A stretch of DNA of 63,283 nt, filler included, from Collodictyon triciliatum (GCA_043381765.1; 5 parts of 5 records of this genome joined end to end with filler, not necessarily neighbours in it); one strand, 5' to 3'. Positions 3,811 to 59,468 are shown, counted from the first letter of the whole stretch. Notes: generated by a model not told the origin, from the letters alone. Translations and numbers: made by a program.

Positions 3811-10099
<6,289 letters not shown>

Positions 10100-15309: not shown

Positions 15310-16832
15310 CTGTATTGTGAAAAGAATGGTGTGACTGGGGTGTGTGTGTGTCCAAAGTGGCACAAAGTTCTCGTGAGCCACGGACAGGTTTTTCTGTCTT
15401 TGGCTAAAGAAAGAGTTGTTGTCTGTTAGAGATCTTTGATTGATGTGCGGGAAACAAGACACAAGGGTGGTATGCAGCTTGGTGGAGTTGAGAACAAAGT
15501 AATGTGGATTGATACTGATCAGAAAGGGACGAGTACAGATACGGCAAGGAAGGTTGTAAGTATGACTTGTGGTTTTTCTCTTTTTTTCTCTTTTTTTTTC
15601 TTTCATTTCTTTAAATCTAATCTGAATGTTATTCAATTGGGCCCGCGGTGATACACGCATGCCTTTCATGACCAGTGTCTATGCAACACGACTTTCATGA
15701 CTCTGATGTTTAAGTATATGTGGGTTTGAATGCGCAACATCTGGCAGCAAAAAACGCGGCGCCTCGAGTGGACGCAGCTGAAACAGCATCACAGACTTTG
15801 TTCCAAACAGAACAATGTTTTGGAACATCACAAGCATGGTTCTTCATGGATAAGAGTAGTTGAGCAGATAGCAGGATCTTATATGTCTGTTATGAATCTT
15901 GCGTGAGATTACTTGACTTATATATATCCTCCAGACAAGAGCAAAAGCAAAAGCAAAAACAAAAATAAAAGCCACGCGTTAGAAGCGCGTACAACAGAGA
16001 TAAAACCACGTCTGTTTCCCATACAAACCGCACACATTCCACGCTGCATTAAATCCGTGGGGATATTCAAGCAAAATACCACCTGGTTTGACATATGCCG
16101 TCTTCGTTTCATTCACGCCACATGGCAATACATCTACACTGGGCTACTTGTCGGCTTCTCGAACGCGAGCACGCATCAGACGGACTGCTACGCCATCCTC
16201 TTCTTCACAGAATATACATGTATGTGTTGTGTCGTGCGTTCGCCTTTTCTTTCTTTCTTGATTGTTGTACCTTTTGTTTTAAGGTATAAAATCCACACGG
16301 CCATGAAATTATTCAGAAGGCAACGCCACAATGGAAACTCTTGACGAAACAAAGCGCAATGTCGGACAAGGCAACCACCGCGTCAACGGCTATACCACGC
16401 TGCTTCCATCACTGTCCATCAGCCAAGGGCGCAAGACCACACTGACGCAATCACAGGACGCAGCTTTCCTTGTGAAGGCAGTCGACGCGGTCGTGACAGT
16501 GTCGTTCCCAAGCAACAAAAGGAAAAGGAAAAGGAAGACGGGTGGATGGGACTGAGTCATGGAAGCAGGTGGATGCAAATGCTCATCACGTCACTGACAG
16601 CCAAGCATCAACGCCTATGCACTTGTTGGCAGGTTCATCACGCGACCTGTCGGAAATCACAGCTCCTCGTTTAGAAGGCAAGCGAGACTCCGCGCCACCA
16701 TCGCCCATCCCGCCTAGGACACATACAGCATGCAAAGCAAACGAGCAATAAAAGCATCCGTTTCGCCTTATTATGCACAAGGTAGAGCGACAGGCTGTCA
16801 TATACCGCAGCCCAAAGCAAGAAGGAAGGAGC

Positions 16833-16958
<126 letters not shown>

Positions 16959-16966
16959 CGCAACCA

Positions 16967-19900
16967 TCACGCAGCAAGAAGCGACGCCCACGGACGATGG
17001 ACGCGGATTGCATGAGGAACAAACGTGCCAAACAGAGCAAGCAGGTCTTGGATGTGCGGCAGAACAGGCGCAAGGCCGAGGGTGCGGGCAGACTCTGCGA
17101 GCGGATGGTCGGGGTCGAGCAGGGTGTCCGTCACCAGACGGCGAAGACGGCGCGACAGCAGACGATACGTGGGGTCGTCTGCGCGGCACGTCTGGCCCAG
17201 CATCTGGCTGAGGAAAGCATCGTCGTCGTCAGCGGCGGGCGCTTCGGAGCAGGCGTCTGTGCGCAGTCGGCCAAGTGCGTCCTTCCACGAGGCGTGCAGG
17301 CGATGCAGCGAGAGGGACGGCGACGTCAGGACGCCAAAGAGCATGCGGCGCAACTCGTCCCAGTCCGCAGGGGCCGGGCGGCAGCGGGACTTTGCCAGGT
17401 GCGCACCCACCGCCTGCAGATGCGTCGCCATCAGCACGCACAGCTGCACCTGATTCTGCGCCTGCTGCATGCGCCGCGTGTCCAGCCGCAGGATGATGCT
17501 GCTGTTGCTGCGTGCTGCTTGCCCGCTTTCCGCCTGCGAGGCTGCCTCGAATGCCCACGCCGTGCACACGTACGAGGAGGCCAGGATGTGCTCGAGCCTG
17601 GGCTCGCGTGGTGACGGCCTGCCTTGGTGCTCCTGCAGAGCCTGCTTGCCCTCCTGCATCCAGCTGGCAAGGTCCTGTGCGACGAGCGGGCGATTTTAAG
17701 CGTGCGTTTGTGTATGTAGTGTGTGCGGTGTGTCGTTCGTTGACTGAGAATCGATACATGGCTATCTCCCTAGTACTTTTGTCTTGCATCTTATTCTTGC
17801 TATTGCACTTTTGGGTTTTTTTTTTGTTTGAAAAAGGTTGTTTGTTAGGGAATGATTTGGCATGTACCTGCCATATTTTGTGCTGGGCATCGGGCGGCTG
17901 TGAGTTAATGAATGATGCGAATTTGTATCGCTCAAACTCCAGTCCGTGGTGTTGCAAGTAGTGTGCTGCGATTTGCAGCTGGCTGTTGATCACGTCGATG
18001 CGGATCTCCTCGATTTTGTCAAAGACATATTCAAATGCTCTGGGAAGGTGGTGCAGAATGACCTAGTAAGTGACAGCACATAAATTCAGACATTGGGTAG
18101 GAGATGCAGCATCATTTCTCTAGCCCTTCGATTGCTCTCAGCTGGTGAAAACCAAAGAAAAAAAGGAATGCATATATGGCCAAGAGAACAATCGGAAGAT
18201 GAACATGATGATTTAAGTTCAATAAAAAAAATATACCAAATGGGGACCCTCAGTCACCTCTGTTTTGGATACGGAAGAGAGAAATGAAGATAGCCACCGC
18301 CTGGGTTTAGCGTCTCATTTTAATATGAACAGTATCACAATCATCGCTGCCGTCCAACACATACATACATACATACATACATACATACATACATACATAC
18401 ATACATACATACATACATACATACATACATACATACATACATACATACATACANNNNNNNNNNNNNNNNNNNNNNNNNNNNNNNNNNNNNNNNNNNNNNN
18501 NNNNNNNNNNNNNNNNNNNNNNNNNNNNNNNNNNNNNNNNNNNNNNNNNNNNNATACATACATACATACATACATACATACATACATACATACATACATA
18601 CATACATACATACATACATACATACATACATACATACATACATACATACATACAAGACACACAAGACACACACATAAATAATAACATTAATAAAAATAAA
18701 GAATGTGTTTTTGTTTTGGGAGAATAGTAAATAGCCCGAACCTGGTTTGGTCTCCGCGGATGGGTGCCTCAAGTTCGAGAATGTACTCGACACAAAAGTG
18801 TACCAGACCTAAAAATACTTCGTTGTCAAAGTTCCCAGAGGTCAATTGCTCGCCTAGTTCTTTCGAATTTAGCCTTTCGTTCAGGCGCTGAAGGAGTGTG
18901 GCTACAATAATTGCAGAATTAATAAGTCTGGGAAATGCATATTTTCATATAATAATGCGTAAGTGATATATCCTAATAAATCCAATGGTCAACAGCTTTG
19001 ATTATAATAAGTGTAAAAATAAAAAAGTTGCCCACGAGATTTCTTTGGTGTTAAAGACGAGAATCCCTCTCTGATTTCTTCAAACATCCTAATTACTCGG
19101 TCATAAATGGGTGGAGAATTAATCAGTTCCTGTTTGATTCCATCCCAAAAGGCCTATGAAAATGTTATCAGAAATAGTTCGCAGGTAGATGGTTGGCAGT
19201 GAATATCACTCACTTTCCTTAATGTATGTGTGTATGTTCAAGTATCTTCTTCATGTGATTTATAGGCAACACATACTCTTTTCATCGTCTCTTTAACTTT
19301 TTTAAATAGCTCGTTTTGGGGCTCGTCCTGAGTGAGTTTGACAGATGGATTCAAGATGACCTATCGATGTCACATAAATAAGAATAAAGAAAACAAGGAT
19401 TTGACAAGAGCGTGTATTCGTTAACTGAAGCGATATCCAAACGTGGATTATCATTTTTAAATCAAAAAAGAAAAATAAAGTGTATTGGTGCTCGTATAAT
19501 TTCTATAGATATTAGGCTGAAAAAAATATACTTCATGAGCCAGCTGTTCCTCTACAATCTTTTCGGCGATATCTCGCTCTTCATGCTCTATGAATGAATT
19601 GAGATGAAACTGGTTATTAATTTGCGTACTATGGTGGTTTAGACAGGTACTTATTGAATTATCACATCACAATTAGTAACGCTTTCATGTGTCAGAGTTA
19701 CTCGAGCAGATTCCTCATAATGCGCTAATGATAAGCAAACCTCCTATATTCTCAGAGTCTTCGTTTTCGGAAGCGTCCAGACGGCTAAATTGATCTTCAA
19801 CCACAAAGCAGGGGAAGAATAAACAAAAACAAACGAGAATGGGAGCAAATAAAGAAAACAATAAATTCTCAAGCTGACAAGAACACAAAGCGACGAAAGG

Positions 19901-20063: not shown

Positions 20064-21273
20064 CGGGACGTTCGGCTTTGTTATGCGCAGGAAGTCCTAG
20101 TCGAGTCGGACGGATTTTCTGGGTATTACTTTCTCGCGGTCTCCTCGGTGTTCTTGCTCTCGAGTTCAACACTTGCCTTGTGATCTTCCTTCTCAATGGG
20201 TTTATCCTTCAGATCGACGCACACACACACACACACGCCTTTCGGTTCCACAAATGTTTCTGCCCAACCTGATTATTCAATACATAGGTCTAACTTTCGG
20301 TTACGGTTGTCTATAAGCGTCGAGGGGAGTATTCACAGTTCGAGGAAAATCCACGTGGTATCATCATGATATATATTCATTATTTTCGTGTTTTTATATT
20401 TATGGCATTGATATTTATGGAATATTTGTGATATTAAGATGCAATATTTGTAATTTCCACAATTACTAAATTGGAATCTAAGGGTGCATTCGATGGTTAA
20501 TCAAAGCCTTTTTTTTCTTTTTCTTTTTCTTTTTCTTTTCTTATTCCTTCTCTATTCGGTCTCATTCAGCCTGTATATGGATAAACTTCATTGCAAAGGT
20601 TGTGACGAACTTGGTTTTGTCCCTTTCAAGGCACAACACTTTTTATACAATGAAAGTGTACCTATATTTGTATAGCAGTTTATTGCACAGACAATCATCG
20701 AATTGAATCTGGGTTGACAAAAGCAGGAGCTTTGGTGAATCCAAGAAACAACCTGAATCATATAATAGTACGATTAGTATTTAATTAAGATTAAAAATAC
20801 TTAATAGTCTCATTTTATTCCTGATATCAGTTTAATTTTATTTTCCATTATGTGATATTAAAGCTCAAAAATGAAAAATGAAAAACAATCCCTTGCCTTC
20901 GCCCAGACAGAACCCACCCTATAAACCTGCCACCAAACGTGCATTTCAAAAAAGCATACTATCCACACTTGCGGCGGTAATCATGTTGTTTGGGGCCGAT
21001 ATGTTGACTTTCAACCGCAATGGCCATACGACCATCCTTTCAAACTCGCCGAATCAGCTCTCAGTGTTTTGTCTCAAATCACTTATAAAAAAAAACTTTG
21101 TGTGTTTGTTTGCCACAATGCGCACATTTTGAAAGTCTCGGTAAATGCTTAATTTTACATAAATCGATTTTATGCAGTTTATTTATTTATTAAATTGACT
21201 GATTGACGAACGTTTTATAAAAATTGAAAACTCGGTAGTTTTCTAAAGGAAAAAGTAAAACAAAGACTTTTAG

Positions 21274-23214
21274 ATGAGGAAAAAAAAACGCCCTGAGTCT
21301 GAGAATCTAAAGTCTATAAAAACCCAAAATCGTAATACGATAACATCTCTAAAGTCGATTGTTAAGAATGCGGACAACTATTACAAAATCAACGATACGG
21401 GTTTATTGTGTCATAATTTGGTTACTGACACTTATCTGTTTGCAAGATGTTACATATTGAAATCACAACAACACCCAACAATCAATGAAAGTTTTTTTTT
21501 TGTACGCCTTAAAGACAGTCGGAATAGTTTCACAAGATAGACCAGCAAGATTAAAAGCATCCAGAAATGAGAGATGGCATGATGACTTTTTATCTCTATG
21601 ATTTTCAATTCCTTTTATCCCAAGAACACTTTCCGTTAGTTGAACTGTCTCATGTATTACTGTAATTGGCGAAGCAAATGTTAACAGTTTATCATAATAC
21701 CATTAAGGAGCATTTTGTAAAGAGGTTACTGCGCTTTATAAATCAAACATTTCCTAAAGATGTGAATATTACGGAAACTATTAAAAAGGCAGAGCTACGA
21801 AAGTAAAAAAAAAAAAAAAACCATCTTCAAGAATCTCGACATACCGGAACAATATAAATAATGGGCTAGAATACATTTGCATCATATCATTCCCAGCGAT
21901 ATTGTAAATTGTATTGAATATGACGTCAAAGCCAATCCAAAGAAGTGCACTCCATGTCTGATTTACATGAATCGTATTTTGAGGTCATTGGAATCAAAAA
22001 GTATCAACCAATCTCTATGAGAACTACCAATATGTCATGTCATATTACTCTAGATATTGCATGTTTGATGATATATTAGTATTATCTGGAAAAACACCAT
22101 TAATGAAGAATATACCAGGAAGCAAAGATACCCTATGGGATAAGTTATTTGAAATGAAGAAGAGTGTCCTTCATCAAACAGACTAGAGTTTTAAATACAT
22201 GATACAAACACACGGCTTGGCGGTGTCATTATCGTTTGAAAAGAAAGGTATTTCAAATTCAAAATTTCAATTTAATCAAAAAAACCCCCAAGAATATGTT
22301 TATATAGATGAACTTTCCGAAGAGCAGTTATATTTATTAGCGAAAAAAAAAATAGTAGTTGGAGTGGACGCAGGCAAGTTTAATATGGTTTAGATGGTGG
22401 ATGAGAAAGGTATGAAATTACATTACACGACACACAAAAGAAGACATGATAGCAAATCTCTTAAAAATCACAAAATACTTTTGAGAAGAAAGTAAAGTAC
22501 AATGCTTCAGGGATATACATCGCAAAAGATTTACAAAGCGCTGTTTCTTTTGGTCACAGGACTTTTAAAGAGAATCAATGGTTTGAGAGATTAATACTAT
22601 CTTTAATCGATTTTTTTTTTATTCTTCCTTTCAACTTTTGTGATCTTTAATCGATTTAGAGACAGGACTGATTAAACATAATTCATGCACGGTCGATTAT
22701 GAAAAATTTCGGAAGTATGCGTGCATGAAATCAAGATTCCGGTTAGAACTTTCCAGATTTTATGAACACGTGACTTTTCGAAAGATGATATGGAGACAGT
22801 ATGTTTATACAAAAAGAAGTGAAGAATTGTTTATGGACGGAATCGAAAAGGCATTTGGTAATGATGTTGTACTGGCGTATGGAGACTGAAGTAGAAAATG
22901 TCAGATGAAACATTTTATGCCAACAAACGGAAGAGGATTACGAAAAATACTATCCAAACGTTTTGAAACAGTTAGTGTAGATGAATCTAGAACCTTCAAG
23001 ATGTGCTGTAACTGCGAAAAAGAACTTGAATACATGACACCGAAAGGAAATTCAAAAAAAAATATGTAAATGTCACACATATAAAGAATGCAATCGCCCA
23101 GAAAGCAAACAAAGTGTATTCTTGACAAGGGACTTAAACAGCGCTCATAATATACTCAACAAAGTTCTTTTAATCCTTCAAAATTTGCATACGCCTTCCT
23201 CTAAAAAAAGATAG
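21274..23214 (+). pseudogene. Decayed Fanzor (Fanzor1-like, eukaryotic TnpB homologue; RNA-guided RuvC endonuclease)
   Basis: Across stops and frameshifts: N-terminal ITSLKSIVKN..CHNLVTDTYLFARCYIL; LAKQMLTVYHNTIKEHFVKRLLRFIN; YDVKANP..LIYMNRIL; FKYMIQTHGLAVSLSF; RuvC-I IVVGVDAGK (D at 22367); LAYGD*S..MKHFMPTNGRGLRKILSKRF; RuvC-II VDESRT (E at 22983); Zn-finger CCNC..C; RuvC-III TRDLNSAHNIL (D at 23131). Confidence 0.85.
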
Positions 23215-23375
23215 GCTGTTGGGTCTTTCCTCGCAGCCTTCACCACTACACAACCCTTGTGAAACAAGTGGCGAGACCTTGGATACTAGCGCACCAGGTT
23301 TATCAATCGAAAGATGGTATGCCCCTTCTAGTGTTGAATAATTATCCAATTCTGGGGTTTTTCTTTAATTCCCAT
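23213..23375 (+). ncRNA. Candidate Fanzor omegaRNA scaffold
   Basis: Stacked inverted repeats start at the Fanzor stop codon: AGGCTG 23213-18/CAGCCT 23234-39; CTTGT-GAA-ACAAG 23256-68; ATACTAG 23283-89/CTAGTGT 23328-34 enclosing an ATC-GAAA-GAT tetraloop hairpin (23306-15). This is the position where Fanzor/TnpB omegaRNAs lie. Confidence 0.55.
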
Positions 23376-23601
23376 ATGTCGACCACATCCGCCATCATGA
23401 TTTCATATCAGTTTCTCTGGGATTTGCCTTAAAAAGACGCGAGCGCATTTGATTGGTTAGGTTTGACTCTGGCAACACACAAACATACATACAAACACCA
23501 ACACAAAGGATCAAAACAAAAATAAAAAAAAACAAAGAAAAAAATAATCAAATACACAAACTCAGGCAACCAAGGCACACAACGACAGAAACAAAGACTA
23601 C

Positions 23602-23641
<40 letters not shown>

Positions 23642-23741
23642 NNNNNNNNNNNNNNNNNNNNNNNNNNNNNNNNNNNNNNNNNNNNTTAATTAATTAANNN
23701 NNNNNNNNNNNNNNNNNNNNNNNNNNNNNNNNNNNNNNNNN
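23642..23741. other. Artificial scaffold linker (N-TTAATTAATTAA-N)
   Basis: 100-nt block: N run, TTAATTAATTAA (stops in all six frames) at 23686-23697, N run. Confidence 0.97.
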
Positions 23742-39815: not shown

Positions 39816-44855
<5,040 letters not shown>

Positions 44856-45712: not shown

Positions 45713-46552
45713 GACAAGTGAGCTCATTGAGTTTGAGTTTCTCGAGTTCTGTTTTTGCTGCTGCTCGGCCTTTTCCGATGGCACAGCCATAATAGGCCTA
45801 TTAAACACGTATAAAAAGAAATTGAGTGGTGTTGGACTCAGGTCAGAGGATTGGTGTCATTCTTGAACGTTTTTCTCAATGTTTATCTAGACTTTCGCAG
45901 ATGTGGCAATGGTAATAGTCACCCAGTATTTTTTGGTTACTTCAGAAGAGTATGATTATGCGTTGCAAGATAAAGACATACATATGCGGCACCCGAAGGG
46001 TCAATGACATGAAGAAGGTGTCCGTGTCTGGGGTGATATGAAGCTAGCATGCCTGTGCACCCGAAGGGACGGACAGAACCGTATAGTGTGTACGCCTGCA
46101 TAATTCGTAAATCATGAAAATCGCATTCCCATTCTCTTTTCTTCTTTTTGGACAATGCGCGCTTTTAGATTTAGACGTACTGGGGCAAGAAAGAAGCACT
46201 GTCACTCCATGATATGTCATTCATTCATAGAATATAATAAGTTACAGCTAGACAATTAAAAAAAAAAGTACCTGGTAGAATAAGCCAAGTCTCTCAGCAA
46301 GGACTTTACCGGGGATTTGGTCTCCATAAGTTTCGCGGTAGTTTGTGGCTTCCTCCTCGGCTCGGCTAGCTATCTGGCGGGCGTCAGCTTGAAGTCCGGC
46401 GAGCATCTGAGTTATGTTGCATAGAGGAAAATCAGTGATGTATAGATCGGAAAAAAGGGGGAATAGCTTTCAACTATACCAGCATCACGTAATAAATAAT
46501 CCTTTCTTATGAAAAGTAAAGAGAGAACCAAAAAAGAAGAAAATACTTTACA

Positions 46553-46640
<88 letters not shown>

Positions 46641-47070
46641 ATGATAGAAAAATTCACCATTCCAAGGTGCTTGTCTGGTGTGTGAGAGCGTTTGTTGCTT
46701 CCTGGGATCAGCATCTTTGAGACTATAAGCTTTTCTGCGGCAAGAACAACTCCGTCTTTACAACGGGCTCCAATCACGGTTCTGAATGTAATTGTAACAA
46801 AATCGTTGATGATTGCGAGAAAATGAAAATGAACGAAGATACAAACAATGTGAAATGCAAAATTCTTTGACAAACCCGCTGTTGTCGACAGCCTTCATGG
46901 CATAGTCTACTTGAAAAACATGACCATCGGGAGAGAATGTTGTGCACGAAAAATCATACTATGGGGAAAGCTTTTAATTGTTGATCTCAACATGCGTACA
47001 AACATTGTAGACAGCAACAACAAAAACAATGACAAAAACAATGACAAAAACAATGACAAAAACAAAAACA

Positions 47071-49552: not shown

Positions 49553-49652
49553 NNNNNNNNNNNNNNNNNNNNNNNNNNNNNNNNNNNNNNNNNNNNTTAA
49601 TTAATTAANNNNNNNNNNNNNNNNNNNNNNNNNNNNNNNNNNNNNNNNNNNN
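49553..49652. other. Artificial scaffold linker
   Basis: N-TTAATTAATTAA-N block. Confidence 0.97.
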
Positions 49653-49885: not shown

Positions 49886-52972
<3,087 letters not shown>

Positions 52973-53104: not shown

Positions 53105-53204
53105 NNNNNNNNNNNNNNNNNNNNNNNNNNNNNNNNNNNNNNNNNNNNTTAATTAATTAANNNNNNNNNNNNNNNNNNNNNNNNNNNNNNNNNNNNNNNN
53201 NNNN
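53105..53204. other. Artificial scaffold linker
   Basis: N-TTAATTAATTAA-N block. Confidence 0.97.
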
Positions 53205-56300: not shown

Positions 56301-58800
56301 CACTCAAAGAGATCAACTTTGGTTATGATGATGTATACTCTTGGAGAAAATTGCTCGACGCAAATCTCTCTGAAATGACCTCACCGTACTGTCGCCTTGT
56401 AGCTGACGTTATCCTCCCCAGAATACGCTATGCCTTTGTGTAAAAAGAAAAAAAATCACTTTTCCTGCATTTTTTACTCACACTTGCGCAATAATGCCTC
56501 TATATAAATGTGTTATGTGTGTACTATCATCACTGCATATATACCTCTTAGTATTAGTGCATGTGCTAATATTGAAATTATGTTTGCCTCATGACAGGAA
56601 TGAGTGGAATGCAAGAGAGAGTGACTGTGCTGTTGATTTAATGACTACATGGAGGCACTTACTGCCCAACCCTATTATGAATAATATAATCAATATGCTT
56701 ATTATTCCGAAACTCCGCGCGGCTGTTGATATGTGGAATCCTCGTTCGGATCCAGTTCCTATTCACCTATGGCTACATCCGTGGCTCCCTTTGATGGGTT
56801 TTTTTTCCTTTCCTTTTCTTTTCTTTTGTAAAAAGACATACTTAATAATATCTCATAAATGCATTTATTTATTTATGAATAGAATATAACCACCTGGTCT
56901 TGAGTCAGCACGATAATTACAACCTGTATTCTTATTTTTGTAGCCTTTAATATCTATAAAATCATCTAATATATTTTCAAATTCTACCATTAATTAGCTT
57001 CGCAAATGGAGCCACTTTACCATTCAGTCAAGTACCACATCAGCACTGTTTTGCAAGTGTGGCAACCGAACGACCCATCTGCTATCGCTTTGTTAGAACC
57101 CTGGAGAATGGTTCTTTTCTTAAATAGAAGGATAACAACAACAAAATTTGTTATTTATTTTTATTTTTTCCTATCTATTTCCGATATTAAGAATTATCTC
57201 ATCCTAAAATCATATGACGAGAAAAAGTATTTTTTTTTATACGTTTCAGCATAGTTACTAGGCCTGATAAGGTATTAAATTTCCACTTGATATTAGGTTT
57301 TTGACAAAACCAGCCTGGATTCGATGATTCGCAATTTCGTCCTCCCGAAGCTAATACACGAGATGAAAGCCCTTGTCCTGCACCCAAGCGCACCTTATAT
57401 TGACCCGTTTCATGTTTGGTTCCAGTGCATTGCATAACATCTCTCCGCAAGGACAATTTCTGAAAGGATCTAAATCCTGATTATTTTTTTCATATGTATA
57501 GTGGCTAATGAACTGGAAGGAAATTCTACCAGTATCTGTCATCACCACAATCCTAGAAGGGGACTTCTTCCCTCGCTGGTTCGCCGTTTTGAAAGCTTTA
57601 TTGGCTGGAAATCCAAACTTTGAAGAAGTCGCAAATTGGTATGTGTGTTGCTTTTATCATTATATTTACATCACTTGTAAACACAATTATTTTGGTCATG
57701 TACGCCCGAGAAAACCGCAGCATATATTTTTAGACATTTTTTTTATCCGATTTCGTATTGGTCTTTGAGGAACATAATTTCTTACATCCCACAAATTTAC
57801 ATGTATCAAGGTATCGATACTGGAAGGCGTTATTTCCGCCGGACATTCGTGAGGCTGACCCGATACGCCGCCAGTTTACTCGAGCTCTTGATTATATCAA
57901 CCAGGCTATGAGTGGAGAGGTTCTGTCCGAGCCAACCATCGCACATCCGCAGCCTCCTCCAAAACCAACTCGTCAACCCCCACAACCACACACACAACCC
58001 CCGCTGCAGCCTTCACACAAATCAGTTCCAAAGGTAGTTTTACATGTTAGAAAATATCGACATTATTGGGCTGTGGAAGATTTCCATCATATATATCTTG
58101 GGTGCCTCAGACTGTGGATATATCAACAGCTTGATGAATACATTTTATATGTTTTTACATTTTTATATCTTTTTTATATCTTTTTTATATCTTTTTTATA
58201 TCTTTTTTATATCTTTTTTATATCTTTTTTATATCTTTTTTATATCTTTTTTATATCTTNNNNNNNNNNNNNNNNNNNNNNNNNNNNNNNNNNNNNNNNN
58301 NNNNNNNNNNNNNNNNNNNNNNNNNNNNNNNNNNNNNNNNNNNNNNNNNNNNNNNNNNNTTTTTATATCTTTTTTTATATCTTTTTTTATATCTTTTTTT
58401 ATATCTTTTTTTATATCTTTTTTTATATCTTTTTTTATATCTTTTTTTATATCTTTTTTTTTCGTAGTATCAACCACAATCAAAATATAGGGAAATGAGA
58501 AAACGAAGGAGGGAGACTATTAGATAAATTTGAAGGTTTAATCGCTAATTTCTCATTTAAAACTTACAGGTTTTCATCCCCGAGTTTGGAGTTTCGCTCA
58601 AAGATGAAGTCCAACGAATGTCCGAGTTGTTGAACATCACTTTTTTCCCAAAGAAAGGCTCTCATGATGGGAAGCAGATATACGAACTTGGTCCTCTCAG
58701 CGTATACCTTGACAAGGATATTGTTTACGCGAAGGAAAAGACCTCATGGTTTCCTACGGATTTGGATAGCCTCTTTTTCAAACTTCAAAACGGTGAATAA
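53380..58800 (+). CDS. TFIP11: Tuftelin-interacting protein 11 / Ntr1-Spp382 spliceosome disassembly factor (G-patch and GCFC domains)
   Basis: SKNEQIYGVFGE; VAFVKS; G-patch FTKYSSGFALKMMNKMGFK|GRMGLKEDGIDRAIEV; IFTDMTGP; ELLYNVRLL; LIIPKLRAAVDMWNPRSDPVPIHLWLHPWLP; FFPRW..NPNFEEVANW|YRYWK; FFPKKGSHDGKQIY. Confidence 0.93.
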
Positions 58801-59028: not shown

Positions 59029-59100
59029 TCCGATATGGTGTAGTCGGTAGCACATGTGGCTTTCACCCACACAACCCGGGTTCGATTCCCGGTATCGGAA
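59029..59100 (+). tRNA. tRNA-Glu (anticodon TTC)
   Basis: Acceptor stem TCCGATA/TATCGGA; A-box TGGTGTAGTCGG; anticodon arm TGTGG-CTTTCAC-CCACA; T-arm CCGGG-TTCGATT-CCCGG; followed by a TTTT Pol III terminator. Confidence 0.96.
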
Positions 59101-59368: not shown

Positions 59369-59468
59369 NNNNNNNNNNNNNNNNNNNNNNNNNNNNNNNN
59401 NNNNNNNNNNNNTTAATTAATTAANNNNNNNNNNNNNNNNNNNNNNNNNNNNNNNNNNNNNNNNNNNN
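59369..59468. other. Artificial scaffold linker
   Basis: N-TTAATTAATTAA-N block. Confidence 0.97.

Follow-up and report, generated by a model that had tools for sequence, protein, structure and literature searches.

A decayed Fanzor1 gene lies on the plus strand of the 63,283-nt stretch of Collodictyon triciliatum DNA analyzed here (the window). The initial annotation had proposed that short reading-frame fragments at 21274-23214 join into one broken protein of 550 to 600 aa, and a frameshift-aware search over the locus recovered such a gene. When a frameshift-tolerant dynamic programme was used to align positions 21200-23400 with P0002, an intact metagenomic protein of 648 aa on a 2.6-kb contig, the two were colinear along the entire gene, and 370 of the 640 codons aligned were the same (58%). 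The start of the proposed span is unchanged; its end, however, coincides only with a seventh stop codon (TAG at 23212), past which the likeness to the tail of P0002 runs on to 23271, and by this alignment the gene comes to ~650 codons rather than 550 to 600.

The open reading frame is broken by eight frameshifts (21493, 21554, 21801, 21997, 22068, 22493, 22591, and 23055) and six internal stops (Table 1). Three of the frameshifts fall in long homopolymers (T10 at 21493, A16 at 21801, and A9 at 23055) and may be assembly errors, two fall in short A runs (21554 and 21997), and three lie outside any run (22068, 22493, and 22591). The earlier description of the breaks as stops and homopolymer frameshifts holds for the stops and only in part for the frameshifts. 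In the alignment to P0002, the 44-nt insertion amounts to ~14 extra codons plus the frameshift at 22591, and it is associated with a perfect direct repeat (22599-22613 and 22643-22657).

Table 1. Coordinates of features in the window and of complete related elements in viral contigs
Feature	Position	Strand	Basis or remark
cNMP-binding	8370-9771	-	Pfam, exon-sized pieces
Tcp11	16970-18062	-	Pfam, exon-sized pieces; upstream of the gene, 3.2 kb away
Whole decayed Fanzor1 gene	21274-23271	+	Colinear with P0002; 8 frameshifts, 6 internal stops
N-terminal fragment from ATG, basic KKKR stretch	21274-21537	+	E 4.2e-12, profile 1-77; frame lost in T10 at 21493
Internal stop TAA	21663	+	Opposite Y of P0002
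Middle (REC-like) fragments, 21666-21803 and 21862-22017	21666-22017	+	E 2.3e-9 and 4.5e-7; profile 129-167 and 193-239; stops 21663 and 21859; A16 frameshift 21801
Internal stop TAA	21859	+	Opposite E of P0002
Internal stop TAG	22184	+	Opposite Y of P0002
RuvC-I fragment and next fragment, split by TAG 22391	22187-22492	+	E 5.3e-15 and 9.1e-7; D364 kept, P365 to A
Internal stop TAG	22391	+	Opposite Y of P0002
44-nt insertion within gene	22599-22642	+	First 15 nt equal the following 15 nt; TGA at end
Internal stop TGA	22641	+	At end of 44-nt insertion; no P0002 counterpart
Best-preserved part: YGD*S, RuvC-II, first CxxC	22644-23066	+	E 4.2e-27 and 1e-19; TGA for W; S559 to F
Internal stop TGA	22887 (22887-22889)	+	Opposite conserved W of P0002
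Second zinc knuckle (first Cys to Y at 23080) and RuvC-III RD, to TAG 23212	23038-23214	+	E 1.5e-8; A9 frameshift 23055
3' tail like P0002 C-terminal tail	23215-23300	+	Alignment continues past stop; MFE fold -24.4 kcal/mol
Poly-T run, then 44 N, a 12-nt linker, and another 44 N	23606-23741		Sequence, N-run list; break ~400 nt downstream of the gene
DEAD-box helicase	41241-44034	+	Pfam, exon-sized pieces
Proteasome subunit	45940-46894	-	Pfam, exon-sized pieces
GCFC	56407-56886	+	Pfam, exon-sized pieces
Complete viral element	L002:3637-6952		Inverted repeats at both ends
Complete viral element	L004:3638-6919		Inverted repeats at both ends
Complete viral element	L005:3627-6949		Inverted repeats at both ends

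The motifs quoted for the hidden protein are all present on the plus strand (VVGVDAG, YGD*S...P..GRGLR..L, VDESRT, CCNC, and TRDLNSAHNI), the asterisk in YGD*S standing for the in-frame TGA at 22887-22889. The codons of the three catalytic acids lie at 22367-22369 (D of VVGVDAG), 22983-22985 (E of VDESRT), and 23131-23133 (D of TRDLNSAHNI). A family profile, A1, built from an alignment of 30 full-length relatives (607 positions), was searched with hmmsearch against all 2447 stop-to-stop pieces of at least 15 aa from both strands of the whole window. Ten of these fragments matched at E ≤ 0.0025 (best, 4.2e-27), all of them within 21274-23211 on the plus strand and in profile order, together reaching from the first profile position to position 592 of 607. 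One more fragment, at 21555-21662, occupies the correct place with an E value of 0.27, and the best score outside the gene was E 0.059. The fragments resemble Fanzor as claimed, with profile matches that are colinear and, at this threshold, restricted to the locus, and no second gene copy was found within the window by tblastn or by the A1 search of the 2447 fragments. Both the start of the gene (21274-21300) and that of P0002 carry a basic stretch (KKKR/KKRKR) that looks like a nuclear localization signal; such signals are reported for ~60% of Fanzors in PMC10530073.

Fanzor1 proteins, of which SpuFz1 is an example, are described as omega-RNA-guided double-stranded DNA endonucleases with hosts among fungi, protists, arthropods, plants, and giant viruses (PMC10432273, PMC10530073). 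To this family the fragments could be assigned through P0001, a 141-aa piece of the window whose frame is read through the TGA with an X at the break and which is 68% identical to P0002. In phmmer searches of PDB sequences, P0001 matched PpFz1 of Parasitella parasitica (E 4.9e-9), GtFz1 of Guillardia theta (E 7e-6), and SpuFz1 of Spizellomyces punctatus (E 2.7e-4), its VDESRT...CxxC segment aligning with the DE.RTS..C..C of all three proteins. The A1 profile found only PpFz1 (E 1.9e-94), SpuFz1 (E 2.6e-87), and GtFz1 (E 8.4e-73) in the PDB at E ≤ 0.001, and its match to SpuFz1 and GtFz1 spans almost the whole profile. The gene fragments gave no significant match to Pfam or NCBIfam; intact P0002 gave PF07282 alone in Pfam, at E 0.11, and the Pfam Cas12f1-like TNB domain was detected in 22 of the 30 full-length relatives.

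An AlphaFold model of intact P0002, computed with A1 as the alignment, reached a pLDDT of 82.9 and a pTM of 0.81. In this model the intact relative shows the Fanzor1 fold, in which the REC and RuvC lobes are enlarged, in contrast to TnpB and Fanzor2. In Foldseek comparisons the model best matched SpuFz1 states (E 5.6e-27; TM 0.72/0.77), followed by PpFz1 and GtFz1, with Cas12 variants, mimivirus Fanzor2 (TM 0.21), and ISDra2 TnpB (TM 0.20) far behind. The likeness to SpuFz1 that the initial annotation had anticipated was thus found, on the intact relative rather than on the broken copy, and its choice of Fanzor1 over TnpB and Fanzor2 agrees with the P0001 matches, the A1 matches, and the fold of P0002, all of which point to Fanzor1.

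The window family has full-length homology with SpuFz1 (8gkh/9ceu), PpFz1 (9cf0), and GtFz1 (9cer), and it shares their RuvC D..E..D order and zinc-finger position, at ~20% identity. Unlike these proteins, the window copy is no longer intact: W523, C587, and S559 are gone, and neither an omega RNA nor element ends were found for it. TnpB (ISDra2, 8h1j) and Fanzor2 (mimivirus ApmFz2, 9b0l), which according to the literature perform RNA-guided DNA cutting, have the RuvC and zinc-ribbon core in common with the family but are much shorter, and neither was matched by A1 at E ≤ 0.001. We consider it next to inconceivable that the locus represents a bacterial TnpB, a Fanzor2, or contamination instead of the Fanzor1 of a eukaryotic genome. 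The TNB domain of the relatives is common to TnpB and Cas12f, but the PDB sequence matches are all to Fanzor1, the Fanzor2 and TnpB structures reach a TM of only ~0.2, and the protein, at ~650 aa, has a long N-terminal region. Moreover, the locus, bounded by N gaps at 18553 and 23642, shares one contiguous sequence with a cellular Tcp11 gene.

All three RuvC acids survive in the window copy, as originally claimed (D364, E555, and D604 in P0002 numbering), and all are invariant in the 30 relatives. Other conserved residues have been lost. The window copy retains 13 of 17 invariant family positions, with the changes P254S, P365A, E391D, and S559F, and 24 of 31 near-invariant positions, the losses including W523, which is now a stop codon, and C587, which is now Y. 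With C587 the second zinc knuckle has lost its leading cysteine, so that three of four cysteines remain; the CxxC zinc-finger start noticed earlier is present. Bao and Jurka 2013 (PMC3627910) defined the C-terminal motif as [TS][TS]-x-x-C4 zinc finger...RD. This motif is intact in P0002; in the window copy its order and the RD are kept, but it is broken by S559F and C587Y, and we therefore count it among the dead relics of the family rather than among its working members.

Two of the internal stops could be checked in public sequencing data. Among 11 listed runs, the share of the sampled words did not exceed 0.10 in any, and none is recorded as RNA. Run X2 yielded one 218-nt contig identical to 22830-23047, which spans the stop at 22887, and run X3 yielded one 151-nt contig identical to 22083-22233, which spans the stop at 22184. 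Both runs are freshwater metagenomes from other studies, and one identical contig each is too little for a firm habitat. Because these two stops recur in identical contigs of two other studies, they are not artefacts of this assembly, and the decay is real. The gene is decayed, as claimed, and homopolymer error does not account for all of the damage, which includes six single-base nonsense codons, two of them seen in independent contigs, and lost invariant residues.

Were the breaks homopolymer assembly errors, small introns, or codons that are read as sense in a variant code, the gene could still be alive. This reading draws on the three of eight frameshifts found in homopolymers 9 to 16 bases long, on the position of the TAA/TAG stops opposite tyrosine in three of four cases and of the TGA at 22887 opposite tryptophan, and on the retention of the three catalytic acids. 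We nevertheless judge it very improbable, given that three frameshifts are in no run (one of them with the 44-nt insertion), that the segments between frameshifts align as coding sequence and hence are not introns, and that no single code can explain TAA opposite both Y and E plus TGA. The recurrence of the stops at 22184 and 22887 in other studies and the replacement of 4 of 17 invariant residues and of a zinc-binding cysteine argue against it as well. A variant genetic code was also discarded as a candidate because the frameshifts persist under any code.

Other copies of the gene were evident from two of the runs. Run X5, whose RNA label is a guess, contributed 335 contigs on the gene stretch that cover all 30 bins; 28 of these are at least 99% identical to the window, 46 are 95 to 99% identical, 131 are 90 to 95% identical, and 130 are less than 90% identical. 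A further 68 contigs came from run X1, a subsurface metagenome. This spread of contigs is the signature of a multicopy, diverged family, and the 335 from X5 lend indirect support to the view in the initial annotation that this genome hosts a Fanzor family. At position 21665, within the stop at 21663, all 11 X5 contigs covering the position differ from the window, and 14 contigs differ from it at position 22186, within the stop at 22184. Four X5 contigs and one X3 contig are of a different length at the frameshift at 22068, and a contig belonging to another copy leaves out 22601 to 22646, so that it is without the 44-nt insertion. Since several copies are free of lesions found in the window, less damaged copies exist somewhere.

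A search for longer proteins turned up a single close relative, P0002. An exhaustive protein search returned 1333 representatives at E ≤ 0.001, 373 at E ≤ 1e-10, and 6 at E ≤ 1e-30, and most full-length relatives have 620 to 700 aa. When the whole of P0002 was searched against 5.8 billion proteins, 104 proteins reached E ≤ 0.001 among 8000 scored candidates, and the best relative outside its own cluster among these candidates was 46% identical. With the next relative of P0002 this distant, the sub-lineage made up of P0002 and the window copy is thinly sampled.

Scans with A1 extended the comparison to viruses and metagenomes. Relatives were encoded in 276 of 307 candidate stretches from IMG/VR, and a JGI metagenome scan gave one distant locus. 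We examined 80 loci, namely, the best 80 of the 276 IMG/VR stretches (79 distinct loci) and the one metagenome locus. Many of the best 80 IMG/VR stretches come from giant-virus bins, an open frame of 520 to 800 aa was present in 78 of the 80 loci, and the flanks of five loci carry giant-virus genes (VLTF3, mRNA capping enzyme, and ribonucleotide reductase small subunit). In a tree of 45 rows, the window copy and P0002 are paired (SH-aLRT 100) and are sister (SH-aLRT 96) to viral L006, L004, and L002 plus P0004. The tree comes from a quick LG+G4 search in which SH-aLRT is the only measure of support and no bootstraps were computed; for 30 of the 45 rows there is no taxonomy. The terminal branch of the window copy measures 0.50 versus 0.26 for P0002.

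Perfect inverted repeats of 18 to 36 nt surround the gene in 59 of the 80 loci examined (the best of 276 plus one). Most of the repeat-bounded elements are 2.33 to 2.44 kb long and hold Fanzor1 alone, with the right repeat lying a few to ~70 nt past the stop codon. A DDE_3 transposase is present in the fetched flanks of 12 of the 80 loci, and among the five full-length ones that were scanned with Pfam, four also bear HTH_28; in L002 to L005, the transposase is divergent, just upstream of Fanzor1, and inside the repeats of a 3.3-kb element (Table 1). The repeat sequence is strikingly conserved among the viral loci, even in L001, whose protein is 21% identical to P0002, and the repeat ends read as though a TA had been duplicated within a TTTAAA target. 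In the giant-virus contig L002, an ORF with a CP12 domain, a Calvin-cycle regulator (L002:1866-2201), adjoins the Fanzor element, which hints at a photosynthetic host for this virus.

Tc/mariner-type Fanzor1 elements were described by Bao and Jurka 2013, among them PGv-1, with a Mariner transposase, and PUl-4, in which Fanzor1 stands alone between Mariner repeats and TA duplications (PMC3627910). Compared by description rather than by sequence, the viral relatives of the window copy share the PGv-1 and PUl-4 architecture. The window copy, in contrast, has neither repeats nor a transposase. Around its gene, the only inverted repeats are low-complexity pairs, and the viral repeats gave no Smith-Waterman match in the window above shuffles (in the best case, 24 of 200 shuffles scored at least as high). 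With 118 repeat arms combined into a profile, no match turned up close to the gene (best E in the window, 0.15 at 52393), the best candidate for a DDE transposase remnant in the window had an E value of 0.55 and was not beside the gene, and no target duplication was found at the window copy. The right end of the element may have been lost in the scaffold break, which follows the gene by ~400 nt.

The gene is embedded in AT-rich sequence (31 to 39% GC) that is bounded by N gaps at 18553 and 23642. A Pfam scan of 109 window ORFs identified the neighbors listed in Table 1, which are ordinary intron-bearing cellular genes, and found no viral or transposase-like genes among these ORFs. When window ORFs outside the Fanzor fragments were compared with the flanks of the 80 related loci, only a generic helicase motif at 43573 was matched.

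These surroundings bear on whether the copy arrived as part of an integrated giant-virus genome, of which it would be a relic, or through transposon spread within the cellular genome. The former is suggested by the sister position (SH-aLRT 96) of the window copy and P0002 to the giant-virus clade of L002, L004, and L006, by the relatives encoded in most of the IMG/VR candidate stretches, and by the virus-mediated spread of Fanzor proposed in PMC3627910 and PMC10432273. It nonetheless appears unlikely to us, since the flanks of the 80 related loci (79 viral and one metagenomic) are unmatched in the window apart from the helicase motif, cellular genes are found upstream (Tcp11) and farther off with nothing viral among the scanned ORFs on either side, and the 335 X5 contigs, ranging from less than 90% to more than 99% identity, fit repeated copying within a genome.

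A two-helix hairpin with covariation is present at the 3' end of viral Fanzor1 genes, at L002:6827-6868 and in 15 other viral loci (alignment A5). In this alignment, 90.4% of cells are paired, relative to 78.1% in shuffles and 38 to 50% with the partners slid. Seven of 11 pairs have changed on both sides, a number reached by 1 of 500 shuffles, and the outer helix is 100% paired. The viral hairpin is likely to be an omega-RNA scaffold overlapping the gene end, in line with what is published for Fanzor1. By eye, second and third hairpins can also be traced in the viral 3' ends, the third pairing with the inner part of the right repeat. At the 3' end of the window gene, covariance models R1 and R2 found no omega-RNA scaffold at E ≤ 10; the best hits of R1 (3' region plus repeat; E 1.3) and of R2 (hairpin alone; E 0.22) lay elsewhere. 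Window positions 23220-23285 had been considered as a counterpart of the viral hairpin because the same blocks follow in the same order by eye, and this candidate was rejected, as R1 and R2 give it no support.

We consider it very probable that a gene with this homology, these lesions, and this loss of conserved residues is a dead Fanzor1 copy, a pseudogene that presumably derives from a Tc1/mariner-type element, has lost its ends and any transposase, and is drifting neutrally without function. By analogy with published Fanzor1 proteins, the ancestral protein of ~650 aa would have bound an omega RNA whose transcription began at the 3' end of the mobile element that carried its gene, and the complex would have cut matching double-stranded DNA at the RuvC site. 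Its nearest relatives of known origin, in giant-virus contigs, are carried by a Tc1/mariner-type element with ~30-nt repeats, in which the gene is alone or beside a DDE transposase. Judging from these relatives, the window copy presumably came in such an element; it would then have lost the ends and any transposase and drifted neutrally, and would now do nothing.

Fanzor1, a homologue of the transposon nuclease TnpB, is already known as a transposon-borne family from eukaryotes and giant viruses, and the initial annotation identified the family correctly, but in a dead copy. Taken alone, the locus adds another dead copy to a family whose described members number in the thousands (3655 according to PMC10530073). 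It points, however, to an organism with many diverged copies of a little-sampled Fanzor1 sub-lineage that is tied to the Tc1/mariner elements of giant viruses, in keeping with the published view that viruses probably move Fanzor1 between eukaryotes (PMC10432273, PMC10530073). Such genes are missed entirely by an ORF-based scan and are recovered cleanly by a frame-aware profile search.

We tentatively raise a further scenario, which we regard as possible though somewhat doubtful, in which the barely sampled sub-lineage of the window copy and P0002 took part in exchange with the Tc1/mariner-Fanzor elements of giant viruses before it multiplied in a freshwater eukaryote. If this were true, the organism would still hold intact, possibly transcribed copies of an RNA-guided nuclease of ~650 aa, together with the guide RNA that belongs to it. 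The sub-lineage may already figure in the supplements of the surveys PMC10530073 and PMC10432273.

Several other features of the window deserve mention. The layout of 44 N, 12 letters, and 44 N seen downstream of the gene (23642-23741) recurs at 49553-49652, 53105-53204, and 59369-59468. The linker at 23642-23741, the only gap at which the letters were read, is of the TTAATTAATTAA type, with stops in all frames. These four gaps suggest artificially joined contigs, such that adjacency across them is not assured. The Tcp11 exons (16500-18000) reach up to 67% GC per 500-nt window, relative to 31 to 39% in the flanks, and they are adjoined by long (GA)n and (ATAC)n microsatellites. Finally, a single tRNA gene is present at 59029-59100 on the plus strand, and nothing else in the whole window matches Rfam at gathering score.
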